This document shows, one piece after another, positions 36,469-43,239 of a DNA stretch of 64,000 bases. Below the pieces are notes generated by a model that saw only the letters and a program-made list of their open reading frames with translations, was not told the origin of the DNA and did not search any database. Location: NCBI GenBank assembly GCA_965555375.1, contig CBEWDL010000001.1, positions 6,180 to 70,179 on the forward strand, written 5' to 3'. Within the stretch, counting starts at the first letter, position 1. Every line of letters starts with the position of its first letter. Source of the DNA: an uncultured bacterium. Lineage in GTDB: Bacteria; Zixibacteria; MSB-5A5; UBA10806. The translations under genes and the position numbers were made by a program.

Positions 36469-38282
36469 TCTCATCCGTGATTTTGATGCTATCTGTAGCC
36501 GGTTTTGCGGTCGGTTCTTCTTCCGAATTGCCGGCAGCCTATCGGATAGAAGCCAGACTCGATACGGCAAGCCACATCATTTACGGGACGCAACAAATCC
36601 TGTTCAAAAACCCAACATCGCAGCCGCTGAGCCGGCTATGTTTTCATCTGTATCCCAACGCTTTCAAAGATACATCGACTGTTTTCTGCCAGGAGAGTGA
36701 GGAAGTAAGATCCGATGTGGCATCGGGCAATATATCGAGGCTGGAAGTATCGGATTTGAGATTGGATGGAAGGGATCTTGATCCGGGCAGGATCGATGTC
36801 AAGGGTACGTTGATGTATATAGACCTCTTAGAGGATCTTCTGCCAGGTGATAGGGTGGAGATCTCACTGCAATTTGAGCTTTTAGTCCCAAAGGTAAAGG
36901 TGAGATTCGGTTACGATTCCGACGGAGATTATCTTCTGTCTCACTGGTATCCTATCCTGTGCGGTTATCAGAAAAATCGCTTAATAGACTGGGAGTATCA
37001 TGCCAACAGCGAATTTTTCTCGAATTTCGCATCCTACAGTGTCGTATTGGAGTTGCCATCGGATTTCGCCGTAGGATCCACCGGCAACCTGAGATTGGTT
37101 GATAAAAACGATAAGGTTGCTGTATGGCATGCGGAGGACGAACCGGTCATCGATTTCGCTTTCGCCTGCGGCCCGGGTTTTGAGATATTGGAATCCGATA
37201 CCCTCGGCATCAAGATTCATTATCTTTTGAAAACTAAGAATGTAGAATTGTATAATAGAATAGACAAGATTACCAAATATTCTCTGGGGTATTGCTCTGA
37301 GAGGTTTTTTAAGTATCCCTATCGAAATTTCACGGTCGTGGATTTCGGGCCGGGCGCCGGGGGATTGGAATTGCCGGGTCTGATATCGATCGCTGTTCCA
37401 GAATCGAGATCCATGCGTGCCTCGGTTTATCTCGATAACACCATTGCGCACGAGACGGCTCATCAGTGGTTTTATGCCACGATTGCCACAAACGAATTCG
37501 AGGAACCCTGGCTGGATGAAGGATTGACATCATATATCACGTCTAAAATCGCTCGCTCATTCGGGGACGGGAGGGGTTTTATTGAGCTGTCCGGATATGA
37601 TGTTTCTCTGGATGAATTATCCAGAACATTTGCACTTGTTGGAAAGGCGCCTTATCCGATAAATCTGAAAAGCTGGGAGTATCCCGGCCTTATGAATTAT
37701 ACTTCCGCGGTTTACACAAGGGCGCTGTTAGTCTTACAGACTCTGGAAGGTATCATCGGTGATTCTTTATTTGCCCTGGCTCTTAGGGATTTTGCGGAGG
37801 ATTATCGTTTTGGCCATCCCGACGGCGAAGATTTCATATCCTCGATCTCATCATCCGCCGGCCTGAATCTGAACGATTTCTTCCTGCAATTTATAAACGG
37901 GACTGCCAGAGTCGATTACGGGGTAACATCGTTGAGGTACGATGAGGTGCCTAGTGAGTCTGAAGATGCTGTTGCAAAGTATAAAATTACTATCGATGTT
38001 CGGAGGAGACTCGATGGGATCATTCCTCAGAAAATCACGGTTGGACTGTGTGACGGCGCCAGAATCGATACCACCTGGGACGGCCGTTCCGGCATGGCAA
38101 GCTTTGAGTTTGTGGCGAATTCCGAACCCCGGTATGCATGTATAGATGAGGATAATGTCTTTCCGCTTGACGAAAACAGAACCAATGATAGAATCTATTC
38201 GGAATCCCACTCCATGCGGCTGATCTCTTTCGAGTGGGATGCTGTTTTTGTTTTAGAATTCATATTATCGTTATTCCTATGA
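36465..38282 (+). CDS. M1 family zinc aminopeptidase
   Basis: HETAHQWFY (HExxH) followed by WLDEGLTSY (third Zn ligand Glu). 605 aa. N-terminal signal/TM. Confidence 0.85.
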   Translation: MISSVILMLSVAGFAVGSSSELPAAYRIEARLDTASHIIYGTQQILFKNPTSQPLSRLCFHLYPNAFKDTSTVFCQESEEVRSDVASGNISRLEVSDLRLDGRDLDPGRIDVKGTLMYIDLLEDLLPGDRVEISLQFELLVPKVKVRFGYDSDGDYLLSHWYPILCGYQKNRLIDWEYHANSEFFSNFASYSVVLELPSDFAVGSTGNLRLVDKNDKVAVWHAEDEPVIDFAFACGPGFEILESDTLGIKIHYLLKTKNVELYNRIDKITKYSLGYCSERFFKYPYRNFTVVDFGPGAGGLELPGLISIAVPESRSMRASVYLDNTIAHETAHQWFYATIATNEFEEPWLDEGLTSYITSKIARSFGDGRGFIELSGYDVSLDELSRTFALVGKAPYPINLKSWEYPGLMNYTSAVYTRALLVLQTLEGIIGDSLFALALRDFAEDYRFGHPDGEDFISSISSSAGLNLNDFFLQFINGTARVDYGVTSLRYDEVPSESEDAVAKYKITIDVRRRLDGIIPQKITVGLCDGARIDTTWDGRSGMASFEFVANSEPRYACIDEDNVFPLDENRTNDRIYSESHSMRLISFEWDAVFVLEFILSLFL

Positions 38283-39100
38283 AAAAGATTTTGAAGAGCA
38301 AAATTATTGTCGCATCCTTGCTTTTTGTCCTTCTCGATATAATAGGCGGGCTTCTGATCATGGCTCCTCTTCTGGTGTTTTTACGAATTCATTTGGAATA
38401 TACCGGCTCAGCTTTCAAGCTATGGCCGGTGATCTCTCCGGAGGTTTTGTCCGATATTTTGATCAACGATTACCAAGCACTGGTCATGTTCTTCATAGCG
38501 GCGGCAGTGATATATATAGCCTATTTCCCATTGAAGGTCTTCGTTACAGCCGGGATTTACAAAATTATTATTTCCGAGAAGGAAAGCGGCGAGGAAATTG
38601 ATTCAGCACGCACGTTTTTCATAAGATCGGCTGAGATCTGGATCGGATTTGTCAAAGCCGACATTTTTGGAATTCTGGTATATATTGTGGCCTTGTTTCT
38701 CGGGATTGTATTTGGAGGAATTCTGGGACGATTGGGTTTGTTCTGGCGGGCTGTGACGATCCTGTTGTTTTTTCTTCTGGGTTCGACTTATATCCAGATC
38801 TTAAAAATTGCGGTTGCCGGTAATAAAGATACATCGCTGCGCTCTATCATCCGCTGTACGCGGAGTCGCATCGCCGGGTCTTTTCTGCGGCTGGCGCTTG
38901 GTAACGTGGCCGTGGTTTTGATCGGCTTTCTTATTGTGCTGGGTCTCTGGTCTCTGCTGTTATGGACCCGCAGTTATGACTGGAATATCGTTACCGCATC
39001 GCTTTCGGTGATCTTGCAGCAGGGGATGATATTCTTCATCTGCCTGGCGCAGGTTCTTCGGATAAACTTCAACCATTCTGTCATAAGGAAAGGTGAATGA
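38279..39100 (+). CDS. Hypothetical polytopic membrane protein
   Basis: About 6-7 TM segments. ATGA overlap with the peptidase stop. No family recognised. Confidence 0.5.
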   Translation: MKKILKSKIIVASLLFVLLDIIGGLLIMAPLLVFLRIHLEYTGSAFKLWPVISPEVLSDILINDYQALVMFFIAAAVIYIAYFPLKVFVTAGIYKIIISEKESGEEIDSARTFFIRSAEIWIGFVKADIFGILVYIVALFLGIVFGGILGRLGLFWRAVTILLFFLLGSTYIQILKIAVAGNKDTSLRSIIRCTRSRIAGSFLRLALGNVAVVLIGFLIVLGLWSLLLWTRSYDWNIVTASLSVILQQGMIFFICLAQVLRINFNHSVIRKGE

Positions 39101-39824
39101 CATGCTCTGGGAGGAGATGAACTGGACGGAGTTTGAGAAACTCGTCCCTGACAAATATGATACCGCCATCCTGCCCGTGGGGACTGTCGAAGCCCACGGA
39201 GTATCACCTCTGGGCACCGATAATTTGATTCCCCTGGAGATCTGTCGCCGCATAAGTGAGGATCTGAAAGCCATTATAGCTCCGCCTGTTAATTACGGTA
39301 TAACGAGTTCTCTTCTCGGTTACCCGGGCTCGCTTACCGTATCAGCGGAGACATTTGAGAAATATACAAGCGAGCTATTGATTTCGATAGCCGACTGCAA
39401 GTTCGAGAAAATCGTCGTTATAAATGGTCACGGTGGGCAGATTGAACAGTTGGGGAGGGCGGCCCGCGCAGCGTGGCAGGCGAAAAGAGTTAATATCGCT
39501 GTGGTGCACTGGTGGGTTTGCTGTGATGATATCGTCGAAAAGGTCTATAATCGGGCGGGGGGACACGCTGCAACGGATGAAAACGCGGCGGTGCAGGCTT
39601 TCCGGCCGGATCTCATAAAGAAGGACCTGTATTCAGATGATATGGTCTACAACCATCCGAAAGGATTCACTATATTTCCCAATCCTGGAACCATCATCGC
39701 GTTTAAGGAGGGGGCTGGTTACCTTGATTTTGATCAGGGAAAGGCAGAGGAGTATTTCAACGCCGCCGTGGAGCGCGTAAGAGGACATATCCTGGAGATA
39801 TTCAGACGCTGGGATCGGCTATAA
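39093..39824 (+). CDS. Creatininase-family amidohydrolase
   Basis: AILPVGTVEAHG and ...INGHGGQ motifs typical of creatininase-fold metal ligands. 243 aa. Confidence 0.6.
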   Translation: MNDMLWEEMNWTEFEKLVPDKYDTAILPVGTVEAHGVSPLGTDNLIPLEICRRISEDLKAIIAPPVNYGITSSLLGYPGSLTVSAETFEKYTSELLISIADCKFEKIVVINGHGGQIEQLGRAARAAWQAKRVNIAVVHWWVCCDDIVEKVYNRAGGHAATDENAAVQAFRPDLIKKDLYSDDMVYNHPKGFTIFPNPGTIIAFKEGAGYLDFDQGKAEEYFNAAVERVRGHILEIFRRWDRL

Positions 39825-39862
39825 ATTGTGCGGTCATAGCGGACGGGGCACAATAATTGTGC
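39824..39862. promoter_or_regulatory. Candidate operator: 15-bp perfect palindrome GCACAATAATTGTGC plus upstream half-site AATTGTGC
   Basis: Perfect dyad at 39848-39862 with an extra half-site copy at 39824-39831. Lies about 170 bp upstream of the strong promoter of the outer-membrane operon. Confidence 0.35.
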
Positions 39863-40001
39863 ACCGGGTATAACCGCTTCAAGTCTGTGGTATTATTCAA
39901 GTCTATATGCTCTTATCTCTTGCGAGTCAAGCCGCCGATGGCATGCGGTTTGCTTTTATCATATTCCGATAGTTCATTGACAACTGAATCGAGCAAAACA
40001 G

Positions 40002-40030
40002 TTGACAGCCAGAGGGTATTGTCTTACAAT
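40002..40030 (+). promoter_or_regulatory. Near-consensus sigma70 promoter, probably producing a leaderless mRNA
   Basis: TTGACA, 17-nt spacer, TACAAT. Only 6 nt separate the -10 from the ATG at 40037. Confidence 0.45.
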
Positions 40031-40036
40031 CGACGC

Positions 40037-40831
40037 ATGATCTGGAAGGGCGTTTTATCGCTGATGATCGTTCTGACTATACCGGTCGCTGCCCAGTATA
40101 GCACCTCGGATGATTCCCTTTATGCCAATGTGATCGTGCCGCGCGCCGAACTACGCTGGACCATCGACACACCTACAGCCGGCATGCTTCCGCGAGGGAC
40201 TTTCAATTTTGACATGCGGACTTTTCCCACCGGCGGTGTTCAGTCTTCACTCGAAATAGGTCTGGCGGACCGATTTTCCGTGGGCCTCGGATACGGGGCG
40301 TCGAAGGTGCTGACCGATGTCGATCCCGACTGGAATCCAAAGCTTGAATTCCTGCTTAGATATCGTTTGCATGAGGAGGGCGAGGGTATTCCAGCCATAG
40401 CGGTTGGTTATAGTTCTCTCGGATATGGCGCCTACGACTCTGACAAGAACCGATATACGGTTAAATCGCCGGGGTTCTATGTTGCGTTTTCCAAGAACTT
40501 CAAGCTATACGAGAATCCCGCCTCGTTCCACTGGGGGGCAAACTACAGTTTCGAGAACGAAAAGGACAACGATCCCAACGTATTTATGGGGTTTCACGCC
40601 GATACCGGGCCTGGCATGGTCTTTCTGGCCGAATACGATTTCGCCATAAACGATAACAAGCGGGATGATATCTATGGGTTAGGAAGAGGCTTTTTCAATC
40701 TCGGTCTGGCCTGGTATATAACCGATGAGCTGTCGCTGGAGCTCGATCTGAAGAATCTCCTCAGAAACCGCGATGATGCCGAGGCTATCGATCGTGAGGT
40801 GAGGCTGGTTTATGTGGAGTACTTCTATTAA
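40037..40831 (+). CDS. Outer-membrane beta-barrel protein, hypothetical (signal peptide, C-terminal aromatic residue)
   Basis: Signal peptide MIWKGVLSLMIVLTIPVAAQ. Alternating amphipathic strands. Ends ...VEYFY. The ORF track's upstream extension lacks a signal peptide. Confidence 0.5.
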   Translation: MIWKGVLSLMIVLTIPVAAQYSTSDDSLYANVIVPRAELRWTIDTPTAGMLPRGTFNFDMRTFPTGGVQSSLEIGLADRFSVGLGYGASKVLTDVDPDWNPKLEFLLRYRLHEEGEGIPAIAVGYSSLGYGAYDSDKNRYTVKSPGFYVAFSKNFKLYENPASFHWGANYSFENEKDNDPNVFMGFHADTGPGMVFLAEYDFAINDNKRDDIYGLGRGFFNLGLAWYITDELSLELDLKNLLRNRDDAEAIDREVRLVYVEYFY

Positions 40832-40844
40832 TTCGGGAGCGGTT

Positions 40845-41333
40845 ATGAAAAGGATCGTAATTGCCGCCCTGATGGCGGTATTTTTTTCGGTGGTTTTTTC
40901 AGGATGTTATACCCAGCTAAAAGGCCCGGGGCCGGAGACGGGCGAGCGAATATATCGTGACTATACCTACTATGACGATTACTATTGGTACGGGGACTAT
41001 TATTACAGTCCCTATTACTACCGATCGGGATGGCTCAGTCCGTATTTCTATGGTTATCCGTACTATAGCTATGGATTTTTCTATTCTCCATGGTGGTATG
41101 ATCCCGGGTATTATTATGGCGATGGGGATCGTATTCGTTCGGATAAGTCAATAAGATATCGCCGCAAAGATACGGGCACGTCGCCGGGAGGTTTTACATC
41201 GCCGCCCCTGATACCGGGAGGAAGCGGCGGGACAGTCTCCCAGCCTGTTCGCACGAAAACATCCACGGCTGGCAGCGGGCAGGCTGACAAGCAGACCCGT
41301 TCAGCAGGTAAATCCACTCGACTCAGAAGATAG
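40845..41333 (+). CDS. Tyr/Gly aromatic-rich low-complexity lipoprotein (YxYGxY-type repeats) with Ser/Gly/Thr-rich basic tail
   Basis: Signal peptide plus lipobox (FSGC). About 30 Tyr in about 70 residues, e.g. YYWYGDYYYSPYYYRSGWLSPYFYGYPYYSYGFFYSPWWYDPGYYYG. Confidence 0.6.
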   Translation: MKRIVIAALMAVFFSVVFSGCYTQLKGPGPETGERIYRDYTYYDDYYWYGDYYYSPYYYRSGWLSPYFYGYPYYSYGFFYSPWWYDPGYYYGDGDRIRSDKSIRYRRKDTGTSPGGFTSPPLIPGGSGGTVSQPVRTKTSTAGSGQADKQTRSAGKSTRLRR

Positions 41334-41343
41334 GGAGGATGCG

Positions 41344-42636
41344 ATGCTAATCAGAAAATCCGGTTATTCACGCATGTTTCAGATAGCTCTGGCTTTCGCA
41401 ATTATGGTTACCTCAACTGCCTCCGCGCAATTTTTGTACGATCCGCTTGTGGTTTACGAATCGTTCACGGAGAATGGCGTTTTGCCCGGCGCCCGGGCGG
41501 CGGCCATGGGTGGGGCACAAATCGCCGCCGGCACCGACGGTTCGGCGTTATGGTACAACCCGGCCTTGCTAACGAGGATCAGGCACAACGAGATCTCAGG
41601 CACTTTAACGCATCAGATATTCTCCAATGAAACCTCACTGCTGGGCGGAGTCAGGCAGGAAGCAGAGGTTAGCAACACCAGGCTGGGAAGCCTCTGGGGA
41701 ATATTTCCCGTGCCGACTTACCGGGGCGGCCTGACTCTTGGAATCTCAGTAAACAGGATTAGAAGCTTCGATAGGGTATTCAGGTATGCATCGAGCAATA
41801 ACTGGTTGAGTGATCCCACAGGCAACGATGGCTGGGGTGGCGGAGAGGATGAAAACGGCAGCCTCTGGGCCTGGTCTTTCGGAGGGGCGGTCGAGATTTC
41901 GCCCAAAGCATCCATAGGATTGTCTCTCGATATCTATGACGGCGACGATAGCTGGACTTTCTTCTTCGATTCGACATCTGTTTCGGATAATTACAGGTAT
42001 AGCTATCAACACACGATCATGGATGACTATACGGGGATTTCGGGGAAGGTCGGTATTACCTATGTGGTCAATAATCATCTCAATCTTTCAGGAGTAATCG
42101 GCTTTCCGACCTCCATAACGATCGATCAGACCAGCGATGTTCTGGAGTTCGACAACCAGGGGTTTGACGAGGCCGATTACAGCTCGGCGTCGTACAGATA
42201 TACTCTGCCTTTCAGGTTCGAAGCCGGCGGAGCGCTCAGATATGAGGATTTGACTCTGGCCGGTGATATCGGCTATACCGATTACACTCAGCTTGAATAT
42301 CGCTCGGGCCTGTTCGACCTGGCCGGGCTTAACCAGACGGTGAAGAGATATTATGACGATGTTTTCACATATCACGTGGGGGCCGAATATTTTGTTCGCT
42401 CCGCCGGTATCCGCTTGAGGGCCGGTTACTACCAGGACCCGATACCCTTCACCGGTTATCCTATCGAGACCGAGCCTCATTTCTTTACATTTGGAGCCGG
42501 TTTCATTGTCGACCGCTCGGTTAATATCGATCTGGCGTATCTGATGGGATCGTGGGAGCGGGATGATCCGTCCATCGGCAGTTCGGAAAAGTATAGCGCT
42601 CAGAGGTTTATGGTAACGGTATCGTATCGGTTGTAG
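41344..42636 (+). CDS. FadL / PorV-like outer-membrane beta-barrel protein
   Basis: Signal peptide. N-terminal GARAAAMGGAQIAAGTDGSALWYNPALL motif typical of the FadL/OmpP1/PorV superfamily. Ends ...SYRL. Confidence 0.55.
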   Translation: MLIRKSGYSRMFQIALAFAIMVTSTASAQFLYDPLVVYESFTENGVLPGARAAAMGGAQIAAGTDGSALWYNPALLTRIRHNEISGTLTHQIFSNETSLLGGVRQEAEVSNTRLGSLWGIFPVPTYRGGLTLGISVNRIRSFDRVFRYASSNNWLSDPTGNDGWGGGEDENGSLWAWSFGGAVEISPKASIGLSLDIYDGDDSWTFFFDSTSVSDNYRYSYQHTIMDDYTGISGKVGITYVVNNHLNLSGVIGFPTSITIDQTSDVLEFDNQGFDEADYSSASYRYTLPFRFEAGGALRYEDLTLAGDIGYTDYTQLEYRSGLFDLAGLNQTVKRYYDDVFTYHVGAEYFVRSAGIRLRAGYYQDPIPFTGYPIETEPHFFTFGAGFIVDRSVNIDLAYLMGSWERDDPSIGSSEKYSAQRFMVTVSYRL

Positions 42637-42654
42637 GTGGGGAAGGGAATTGCT

Positions 42655-42690
42655 CCGCCGCCGCGCCAGCGCCTGCGGCGGCTTTTTTTT
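42655..42690 (+). terminator. Rho-independent terminator
   Basis: GCCGCCGC, 10-nt loop, GCGGCGGC, then TTTTTTTT, immediately after the 41344-42636 gene. Confidence 0.7.
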
Positions 42691-42702
42691 GAATCAAACT
42701 GA

Positions 42703-43239
42703 TTATCTTGCCGGATTTCCGAGTTGCGTTCTATATGTTTGTCTTACCTCCCTTAAAAATTCAACAGCTAGCTGCTGGGAATAATCGGGGTATGTCCAGG
42801 GGTGGGTAACAAATTCTCCCTTTATAAATCTCATTGTAACCTCGGCCCAGATATTATCCCGAAGATATATCCTGTGTGAGAAGTTTTTAGTCGAGGCCAG
42901 CACCAGTTTCGATTCCTCGAGATAACCGGGATCGAGATTAACCATCCTCCTGCCGTTTTGTGAAAATGCTTTCTCAATCGAGATTGTTGCATTCTTGATA
43001 TCAGCCAGTCTACCCGGTTGTATCAGCTCCTCGAATGAATAAAACTGCTTGGTGAGATTATCTCCCATCTCGTCTTTATAATAATCGGTGAAGTTGAAGG
43101 CGAACGGTCTGGATTTCAAATCGATCAAACCGAAACGGGATATTAATTCATTATCCAGCCGATCAAGGTCGGCGGCGCCCTGATATAAGACGCCGCAGAT
43201 GAGCTTTACCGGTTTGATTTCAGGTTTTGCTCCGGGCAT
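42703..43239 (-). CDS. DUF4416-like hypothetical protein
   Basis: 178 aa soluble protein. Family assignment from memory of length and composition only. Confidence 0.45.
   Translation of the reverse strand: MPGAKPEIKPVKLICGVLYQGAADLDRLDNELISRFGLIDLKSRPFAFNFTDYYKDEMGDNLTKQFYSFEELIQPGRLADIKNATISIEKAFSQNGRRMVNLDPGYLEESKLVLASTKNFSHRIYLRDNIWAEVTMRFIKGEFVTHPWTYPDYSQQLAVEFLREVRQTYRTQLGNPAR

Follow-up and report, generated by a model that had tools for sequence, protein, structure and literature searches.

A conserved gene trio of Zixibacteria encoding two outer-membrane barrels and a tyrosine-rich lipoprotein, and its possible role as a split export system

In a stretch of 64,000 nucleotides from an uncultured bacterium of the Zixibacteria (contig CBEWDL010000001.1; the whole stretch is called the window in the following), three tightly packed genes raise the question why two outer-membrane beta-barrels of different classes should be encoded together with a single, extremely tyrosine-rich lipoprotein. 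The first gene, g1 (40037-40831, forward strand), codes for a 264-aa barrel with 12 predicted strands, the second, g2 (40845-41333, forward strand), for the lipoprotein, which has 162 residues and not the 163 first counted, and the third, g3 (41344-42636, forward strand), for a 430-aa barrel of the FadL family that is closest to BamG. The three open reading frames (ORFs) are co-directional, with 13 nt between g1 and g2 and 10 nt between g2 and g3, and ribosome-binding sites of the GGAG type precede g2 and g3, g1 being without one. All three products start with a signal peptide, which ends in PVAAQ in g1 (whose C-terminal end reads EYFY) and in TASAQ in g3, and which in g2 begins with MKR and ends in VVFSG, forming the lipobox VFSG-C21.

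The answer that we tentatively favour, at somewhat less than an even chance, is that the three genes encode a split two-barrel system which would export and anchor the unfolded lipoprotein g2. The evidence that carries this reading is the conserved linkage of the genes, the nature of the lipoprotein family and the relationships of the two barrels; a set of conserved transcription signals adds to it the likely mode of control.

The conserved trio and its lipoprotein family

That the three genes between 40037 and 42636 belong together, with a lipoprotein encoded between two outer-membrane barrels, had been proposed from the window itself, and this unit turns out to be conserved. A scan for a g1 motif in the genomes of 185,579 species matched 366 stretches, of which 80 loci were kept. 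Of these, 24 contain the full trio, including one Gemmatimonadota locus with the order g1-g3-g2, two have g1 and the lipoprotein gene at a contig end, two have g1 and g3 with a 167-bp gap and no lipoprotein gene, and ten are too short to judge; the less complete arrangements are weighed further below. The order of the trio is constant throughout the Zixibacteria clade, and in Ignavibacteriales-like contigs the trio occurs between other flanks (cysS on the 5' side, a penicillin amidase gene on the 3' side) with a lipoprotein of 320-360 aa that has a longer Ser/Gly/Arg tail. In a tree of g1 the trio-bearing loci are spread over several deep clades, and the module as a whole is spread over several phyla of the FCB (Fibrobacterota, Chlorobiota and Bacteroidota) superphylum, comprising at least four candidate or recognised phyla.

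When three distant lipoproteins were taken as the starting point instead, g3 was found immediately 3' in all three cases, where it overlaps the lipoprotein stop codon or directly adjoins it, and g1 was found 5' in two of the three. Because g3 adjoins the lipoprotein gene at each of these starting points, and g1 only at two of them and often stands alone, the g2-g3 pair is the tightest link in the module, with g1 as a frequent third partner that is also found by itself. In most cases g2 and g3 are translationally coupled. The preliminary description had proposed to check the conservation of the gene neighbourhood, and had named as contrary outcomes the absence or frameshift of the tyrosine-rich gene in close relatives, freely varying neighbours, or three unrelated families without conserved linkage. 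The linkage holds across lineages, and of those outcomes only the loss of g2 in one sublineage was seen. As an observation in its own right, a lipoprotein-g3 pair without g1 at L092:1-3816 (minus strand) lies divergent to genes for an extracytoplasmic function (ECF) sigma factor, an anti-sigma factor and an HtrA-type protease, a neighbourhood that hints at a connection with envelope stress.

The mature lipoprotein of the window consists of parts that differ strongly in composition. Cys21 is followed by a conserved YTQL, so that the mature start reads C-Y-T-Q-L-K, and then by an aromatic block (aa 37-91; nt 40953-41117, forward strand). Tyr, Trp and Phe make up 44% of residues 21-93, and 54% of the core residues 38-93 (23 Y, 4 W and 3 F in 56 residues). 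While the aromatic richness was thus rightly recognised at the outset, the regular YxYGxY-like repeats then proposed do not hold, as there is one exact match and there are four Y-x-[YWF]-G motifs, and g2 contains no tandem repeat at the DNA level. The aromatic region is a compositional block with the conserved core YPYYSYGFFYSPWWYDPGYYY and not a repeat array, and the core motif YPYYSYGFFYSPWWYD is highly conserved. The basic, Ser/Gly/Thr-rich tail, in turn, is present as described: residues 94-162 carry a net charge of +11, and 35 of these 69 residues are Ser, Gly, Thr or Pro. It contains two similar basic motifs, KSIRYRR (aa 101-107; nt 41145-41165, forward strand) and, at the very C-terminus, KSTRLRR (aa 156-162; nt 41310-41330, forward strand), with a Ser/Gly/Thr/Pro spacer between the two.

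With respect to the distribution of this protein, a word-seeded search with g2 yielded 14 clusters at 34-91% identity, and a profile search against 1.84 billion representatives yielded 151 clusters at E<=1e-3, most of the matches being 150-230 aa long and aligned over their full length. Since the Cys-Tyr-Thr N-terminus, the aromatic core and the terminal Arg/Lys cluster recur, these matches are more than low-complexity look-alikes: in 153 of 161 sequences the lipobox Cys has Tyr-Thr as its immediate continuation, and both a core of the form YYY-x-x-P-W-W-x-D and the terminal cluster recur in the members inspected. S19-G20-C21 is invariant among 15 sequences, as expected of a lipoprotein lipobox. 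Neither g2 nor ten distant relatives gave a meaningful match to Pfam or NCBIfam, which agrees with the initial impression of a lipoprotein outside any named family, in so far as no model in these collections fits the members tested. Compared with its two closest relatives, g2 has a ratio of non-synonymous to synonymous substitution rates (dN/dS) of 0.13-0.18 overall, the aromatic half being at 0.08-0.12 and the tail at 0.22-0.27, and these values indicate that the gene is under purifying selection.

A structure prediction for g2 with AlphaFold2 from a 15-sequence alignment gave a mean predicted local distance difference test score (pLDDT) of 46.6 and no structure beyond the signal peptide, so that g2 is predicted to be intrinsically disordered. 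Searches of the sequences in the PDB with the g2 profile and with the aromatic block yielded chance matches only (flightin, E 0.14), and the Tyr-rich loop of BamA was not matched by either. The basic motif is present in two copies, one 5-25 residues past the aromatic block and one at the extreme C-terminus, and its sequence is specific to the lineage (RNNDGGR, RRHLWxR, GKITRR or RRRGL), with the copies within one protein being alike. A match between the two copies at p<=0.05 was found within 42 of 160 members, compared to about eight expected, and at p<=0.01 within 20. The twin basic motifs thus appear to evolve in concert, which suggests two equivalent binding events. Apart from this, at one of the loci reached from the three distant lipoproteins (L090:2852-4495) the space between g1 and g3 is occupied by a tandem pair of lipoprotein paralogues, a long-tailed one of 380 aa and a short one of 164 aa.

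In 77 of the 161 family members a C-x-x-C-H motif lies between the lipobox and the aromatic block (these members fall within representatives P0118-P0264; examples are L091:4001-4630 and L092:4001-4573), and 76 of these 77 also have His-Pro 3-6 residues after Cys-Tyr-Thr. Together the two motifs probably represent the pattern expected of a covalently bound bis-His haem, which suggests that these members may be tiny single-haem c-type cytochrome lipoproteins. Such lipoproteins sit in the same trio, the His-Pro would supply the expected second axial ligand, and chains rich in Tyr and Trp can relay electrons; it might therefore be supposed that the module has a redox or haem role at the outer membrane and that the g2 of the window is a derived, haem-less variant. 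However, the motif is absent from the g2 of the window, whose sole Cys is that of the lipobox, and the Zixibacteria subfamily to which it belongs appears to have lost both haem motifs and yet keeps the operon, so that haem is not essential to the function of the module. Moreover, some family members have C-x-x-C without the His, haem attachment is a prediction from the sequence motif, and a barrel of 12 strands is not wide enough for a haem. Taken together, we consider a haem-based role of the module highly improbable.

Two outer-membrane barrels of different classes

For g1, an AlphaFold2 model from a 37-sequence alignment is a 12-stranded barrel with a pLDDT of 85.5. When this model was compared with Foldseek, FapF, the transporter of amyloid subunits in Pseudomonas, accounted for 17 of the 19 best matches (E 5e-7), and g1 thus shares with FapF the 12-stranded fold, as far as predicted, as well as a similar size. 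The barrel of g1 also has a conserved acidic loop, EYDFAxNDN. At the level of sequence, the closest relationship is to a different group of proteins. The Pfam model YjbH (PF06082) matches g1 at profile positions 11-109 of 658 with 20.6 bits (E 2.3e-4), which is below the cut-off of 24 bits, and 32 of 37 g1 family members match the first 100 positions of the same model. In hhalign comparisons the g1 family aligns with residues 39-160 of E. coli YjbH (93% probability, E 3e-7) and with residues 39-162 of GfcD (88% probability, E 3e-6). These profile matches identify g1 as a relative, in stand-alone form, of the FapF-class barrel at the N-terminus of YjbH and GfcD.

GfcD consists of an N-terminal canonical 12-stranded barrel of the FapF family, in the region to which g1 aligns, and a C-terminal 13-stranded barrel with an open lateral gate, for which simulations have led to the proposal that it exports lipid-anchored polysaccharide (PMC8346858, PMC11494523). 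The systems to which YjbH and GfcD belong in E. coli (yjbEFGH and gfcABCD) resemble the trio in several respects, as in both cases a 12-stranded barrel related to g1, if remotely, is combined with a second, laterally opening barrel beside a lipoprotein (GfcB or YjbF in E. coli), and a tiny disordered Thr/Ser/Gly-rich protein (GfcA or YjbE) is encoded alongside in E. coli. In contrast to YjbH and GfcD, however, the two barrels are separate proteins here, with g1 being a single barrel of 264 aa, and the trio is without the peptidoglycan-binding periplasmic middle domain. Likewise, the second barrel is of the FadL/BamG type and unrelated to the C-terminal barrel of GfcD, a partner of the GfcC/YjbG or Wza type and polysaccharide genes are lacking from the trio, and the lipid-anchored low-complexity polymer would here be a protein. 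Membership of the trio in the group 4 capsule systems was considered and rejected, as g1 is a single barrel and its neighbours g2 and g3 do not correspond to yjbEFG or gfcABC.

The similarity of g1 to FapF raises the possibility of a Fap- or curli-like amyloid system, in which g1 would secrete the Tyr-rich g2 for polymerisation into surface fibres or a matrix, and it was as a surface fibre or matrix protein that g2 had first been interpreted. FapF passes an unfolded polypeptide, and g2 is predicted to be unfolded when alone, is extremely aromatic and has a conserved core motif. On the other hand, g2 is lipid-anchored and not released, and it has neither a tandem repeat nor the imperfect Gln/Asn-rich repeats of FapC and CsgA. 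AlphaFold2 gives it no beta-solenoid, and its aromatic runs are often broken by Pro, Gly and Asp. Homologues of fapA-E or csg genes are not found adjacent to the trio, and a fapABCDE(F)-type operon is not present. The barrel itself also differs, in that g1 is without the coiled-coil trimerisation domain of FapF and without an evident plug helix, and in that no similarity between the g1 profile and any sequence in the PDB, that of FapF included, was detected with HMMER. An amyloid function is thus very improbable, and the fibre interpretation is not supported. Membership in the curli system specifically was rejected in view of the missing adjacent csg homologues and CsgA-like repeats in g2.

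The third gene, g3, had been described as encoding a FadL/PorV-like barrel, and the assignment to this superfamily stands, with the qualification that its nearest relative is BamG and not PorV. It matches the Pfam model Toluene_X (PF03349) with 39.3 bits, above the cut-off of 29.7, its relatives carry the same FadL/OmpP1 annotation, and the hatch motif Asn-Pro-Ala (NPA; N72-P73-A74) is invariant in 22 family members. The NCBIfam model BamG (NF053685) is matched over the full length with 56.7 bits, without reaching the cut-off of 250, and PorV_fam (NF033709) with 61.4 bits, without reaching the cut-off of 90. All 22 family members match the BamG model (best E 3.9e-27), and among solved structures the family profile matches BamG of B. 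thetaiotaomicron best (E 6.5e-11), followed by TodX, CymD and TbuX, with PorV being marginal. From this family membership, we infer that g3 is a 14-stranded barrel with a lateral opening in its wall. Independently of these comparisons, two metagenome-assembled genomes (MAGs; L021:6437-7395 and L086:6406-7656) have g3 broken up into three ORFs that overlap, owing either to assembly indels or to real pseudogenisation.

In the Bacteroidota, BamG is a FadL-like subunit of the machinery for beta-barrel assembly (BAM) and clamps the lipidated, conserved N-terminus of BamH, a lipoprotein of the cell surface; BamG2 and BamH2 are encoded in a putative operon, and bamG and bamH are neighbouring genes in Ignavibacterium, Gemmatimonas, Fibrobacter, Caldithrix and Salinibacter (PMC12578637, PMC12611786). 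The trio shares with these pairs a FadL-family barrel gene beside a lipoprotein gene, and the N-terminus of g2 is nearly invariant after the lipidated Cys; in BamH the conserved, lipidated N-terminus is held between strands of BamG. However, g2 is predicted to be disordered and bears no relation to BamH, which is a folded protein, so that it is adjacency alone which is shared, a third partner is present in the form of g1, and expression of the trio appears to be conditional, given the sigma-54-type promoter element described below.

It might nevertheless be argued that g3 is a true BamG and the operon an accessory of the BAM complex, with g2 acting as BamH or as a separate counterpart of the Tyr-rich extracellular loop 3 (EL3) of BamA. 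This would accord with the relationship of g3 to the solved BamG and with the match of all 22 family members to the BamG model, with the adjacency of bamG and bamH in FCB phyla other than the Bacteroidia, and with the disordered, Tyr/Gly/Asn-rich loop that BamA bears in Bacteroidota. A conserved N-terminal extension of about eight residues in the g3 of the Zixibacteria clade, relative to FadL, could also be counted in its favour, yet it is not found in the other trio lineages. Against this reading also stand the low score of g3 relative to the BamG cut-off, the annotation of the Ignavibacteria orthologues (MAG proteins) as OmpP1/FadL transporters and not as BamG, and the lack of similarity between g2 and BamH. 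In addition, sigma-54 control suggests conditional expression whereas BamG is essential, and the lipoprotein is dispensable in one sublineage. We therefore regard a role in the BAM complex as unlikely.

The FadL relationship can also be read in a more conventional way, namely that g3 takes up hydrophobic substrates as FadL does, that g1 is a pore for small solutes, and that g2 is a periplasmic accessory or a Braun-like wall tether acting via its basic C-terminus. In line with this, g3 passes the Pfam cut-off for FadL/TodX proteins and keeps the NPA hatch, and TodX, TbuX and CymD are its next-best solved relatives, while g2 is without a surface-export signal of the Bacteroidota type and its long, disordered tail ends in an invariant Lys/Arg cluster. 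However, genes for the catabolism of hydrophobic substrates are not consistently linked to the trio, the flanks of which vary by lineage, and the aromatic block, the twin basic motifs and the translational coupling of g2 and g3 would be left unexplained, so that uptake, too, seems improbable as the function of the module.

In a similar manner, PorV and PorQ of the type IX secretion system are barrels of the FadL superfamily that bind surface cargo and to which g3 gives partial matches; in contrast to these, g3 scores 61.4 instead of 90 bits, and no other por genes are located nearby. Type IX secretion was rejected as an assignment, as g2 matches no Pfam or NCBIfam model of a C-terminal sorting domain and g3 remains below the PorV cut-off.

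Transcription signals and flanking genes

In an upstream alignment of nine close relatives, with g1 identities down to about 62%, a series of islands is invariant within diverged DNA, in the order half-site, palindrome, GGCAY-N5-TTGCT, the box TTCATTGAYAAC, TTGACA and TACAAT. Because these elements are conserved in relatives in which the surrounding intergenic sequence has diverged, they appear to be more than the product of chance. The 15-bp palindrome GCACAATAATTGTGC (GCACAA-N3-TTGTGC; 39848-39862) and an extra half-site AATTGTGC (39824-39831), both of which had been noticed in the window, are present and conserved in relatives; the half-site overlaps the stop codon of the creatininase-family gene and is kept in the other eight sequences of the nine-sequence alignment. 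The palindrome pattern was found once per locus and always 5' of g1 in 15 of 89 loci, including L065, L069 and L086.

Downstream of the palindrome follows a -24/-12 element of the sigma-54 type, TGGCATGCGGTTTGCT (39939-39954, forward strand; TGGCAT-N5-TTGCT with GG-N10-GC), which is the sole match of the sigma-54 pattern in the 64-kb window, compared to 0.04 expected. It conforms to the promoter pattern TGGCAY-N5-TTGCW with GG-N10-GC, and GGCAY and TTGCT, which are the consensus positions, are invariant in the relatives, with variation in the 5 nt between them. All 23 loci of the Zixibacteria clade (L001-L003, L009-L023) have the element 5' of g1, as do L065, L069 and L086, which represent a distant lineage; it is absent from every other locus. 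In most loci of the clade it co-occurs with the palindrome, L015 and L020-L023 being without an exact copy of the latter (which is degenerate at least in L015 and L022). L065, L069 and L086, in which g1 is 36-40% identical, have both elements at a different spacing, and the loci outside the Zixibacteria clade and these three have neither. As the centre of the palindrome lies about 85 nt upstream of the GG at -24 of this conserved element, where enhancer-binding proteins classically have their sites, the palindrome probably serves as upstream activator site for such a protein acting with sigma-54. Searches for the GAFTGA motif and the RpoN box, which covered the window and 5 kb at each locus, revealed neither a gene for RpoN nor one for such an activator. 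Between the palindrome and the -24/-12 element there is furthermore a direct repeat, TTCAAGTCT, at 39878-39886 and 39896-39904 (18 nt apart), which is partly conserved in relatives and could be the site of a bending protein or of a second regulator.

Between the -24/-12 element and g1 lies a second promoter, of the sigma-70 type, TTGACA (40002-40007)-17-TACAAT (40025-40030, forward strand), which agrees with the consensus at 11 of 12 positions. This near-consensus promoter had been recognised from the window sequence and proves conserved, with the -35 hexamer being invariant and the -10 hexamer nearly so among the nine close relatives. In eight of these nine the ATG of g1 lies 6 nt past the -10 hexamer, and no GGAG is found upstream, which supports a predicted leaderless g1 mRNA. 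The leaderless arrangement that was originally proposed is thus supported for the sublineage of the window, but does not extend to more distant relatives, which have leaders: these are about 10-45 nt long in L009, L022, L069 and L086, of which L009, L069 and L086 show a site of the GGAGG type. A box between the two promoters, TTCATTGACAACTGAATCGAG (39973-39993, forward strand), is nearly invariant among the nine relatives, and related boxes, TTCTTTGAYAAC, occur in L009 and L022. A hairpin formed by part of this box (39978-39986) with the -35 region was considered as an RNA element and rejected, as the alignment contains no compensatory changes or covariation. A search of 39700-42800 with Rfam returned only a chance match to OmrA-B at the terminator (20.9 bits compared to a threshold of 40), and the conserved leader is for this reason not regarded as a known RNA.

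Tandem sigma-70 and sigma-54 promoters with an upstream activator site are known, for instance, from glnAp1/glnAp2 of E. coli. The arrangement upstream of g1 resembles that precedent in that an inverted repeat precedes a -24/-12 element by about 85 nt and the gene has a sigma-70 promoter as well; it differs in that the sigma-70 promoter is downstream of the sigma-54 promoter and the message would be leaderless.

A terminator-like hairpin (CCGCC/GGCGG followed by T7; 40864-40887, forward strand) is located inside the signal-peptide codons of g2. It was found at the same place in 12 of 14 loci of the Zixibacteria clade by detection in each sequence, among them L001, L003, L009-L013, L016, L017, L019 and L020, whereas the background of hairpin-plus-T sites in all fetched DNA is 0.021 per kb. 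The stems are of three kinds (CCGCC/GGCGG, CCGCGAT/ATCGCGG and CCGTG/CACGG), and the residues they encode differ; with the stems being in different registers, RNAalifold found little signal in an ungapped alignment of the hairpin. It might be a partial terminator or attenuator that leaves more transcript of g1 than of g2 and g3. At the end of the operon, the strong intrinsic terminator that had been described is present and conserved (42657-42690, forward strand), consisting of a 9-bp stem (42657-42682) with 8 G-C pairs, followed by T8.

The gene 3' of the operon (42703-43239) is on the opposite strand. Upstream, the neighbours code for a histone-deacetylase-like protein, an FAA hydrolase, an M1 peptidase, a membrane protein and a creatininase, and downstream for a DUF4416 protein, a 4Fe-4S protein and a urocanase; as judged from these annotations, the flanking genes are metabolic and unrelated to the outer membrane. 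The membrane protein, encoded at 38279-39100 between the M1 peptidase and creatininase genes, is a multi-pass protein of 273 aa without a Pfam match, and its gene keeps this position across the Zixibacteria loci. The creatininase-family gene (39093-39824 in the window) is located 5' of the module on the same strand in the Zixibacteria clade, but 3' on the opposite strand in another locus (L091:5907-6638), and a penicillin-amidase gene lies 3' of the module in Ignavibacteria-like loci (including L004 and L005) as well as in L056 and L071. Both families thus recur beside the module in unrelated arrangements, and a functional link is not evident.

A possible split export system

The favoured reading, that of a split two-barrel system, rests on three precedents: FapF, which passes an unfolded polypeptide, BamG, which holds an acylated N-terminus, and GfcD, in which both kinds of barrel are joined. 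Accordingly conceived, g1 as a FapF-class pore would pass the unfolded aromatic and basic chain of g2 across the outer membrane, and g3 as a BamG/FadL-class barrel would take the acylated Cys-Tyr-Thr N-terminus, as BamG does for BamH, so that g2 would end up anchored and displayed on the cell surface. The trio would then be a split counterpart of GfcD with a protein as its cargo, g2 standing in place of the polysaccharide. With respect to expression, the sigma-54 promoter would be driven from the palindrome by an activator encoded elsewhere, the sigma-70 promoter would yield the leaderless g1 message, and partial termination just inside g2 would leave g1 in excess over g2 and g3. Candidate roles of a displayed Tyr-rich basic chain are adhesion, the formation of a matrix or the protection of the envelope.

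In a more far-reaching form of this proposal, the trio would be a dedicated translocon that flips a disordered lipoprotein to the surface, with g1 threading the chain and g3 letting the acyl chains escape sideways into the outer leaflet, and its cargo family would comprise an ancestral single-haem form and a haem-less, hyper-aromatic form. Taken as a whole, this extended version is possible but rather unlikely.

A number of observations weigh against a split export system. A physical association of g1, g2 and g3 is a prediction from gene linkage, and either of the partners g2 and g3 is missing at some loci: four of the 80 loci have g1 and the lipoprotein gene without g3, and a sublineage of the Zixibacteria (L022:5858-6025, L023:1343-1514) keeps g1, g3 and the sigma-54 element without a lipoprotein gene. 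In 38 of the 80 loci (in Latescibacterota, Gemmatimonadota, Marinimicrobia, Calditrichia and some Zixibacteria) g1 occurs alone, with neither g2 nor g3 nearby, and it must therefore have a role that is independent of g2. As to the barrels, the g1 model shows no coiled coil of the FapF type and no clear plug helix, about 25 residues of low confidence preceding strand 1, and g3 is far below the BamG and PorV cut-offs and has no similarity to the C-terminal barrel of GfcD (8% probability), the function of GfcD itself being a hypothesis based on simulations. Finally, acidic residues after the lipid-anchor Cys mark the surface lipoproteins of Bacteroidota (PMC12578637), and g2 has none in this place, so that it could face the periplasm instead.

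A search of the literature found no description of a Tyr-rich lipoprotein with FadL, nor of Zixibacteria with sigma-54, that matches this system. While the folds of the components and the pairing of a barrel with a lipoprotein are known already, a combination of both classes of barrel in which each is a protein of its own is new, and so is the cargo family of g2, with more than 50% aromatic residues over 55 residues and twin basic motifs. Its haem-bearing and haem-less sub-types, which are probable from their motifs, would likewise be new, as would be the regulatory architecture predicted here for an uncultured phylum, in which tandem sigma-54 and sigma-70 promoters are combined with a leaderless start.

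How lipoproteins are delivered to the surface in Bacteroidota and their relatives is an open question, and the same applies to the roles of those FadL-like barrels which are not fatty-acid transporters, such as BamG and PorV, and of the very widespread YjbH/GfcD barrels. The operon sets one barrel of each class beside a single, unfolded, lipid-anchored cargo. If the proposed function is true, it would provide a minimal and genetically separable test system for the lateral release of lipid anchors and for the threading of polypeptides through 12-stranded barrels, and a simple model for the surface exposure of lipoproteins in the FCB superphylum.

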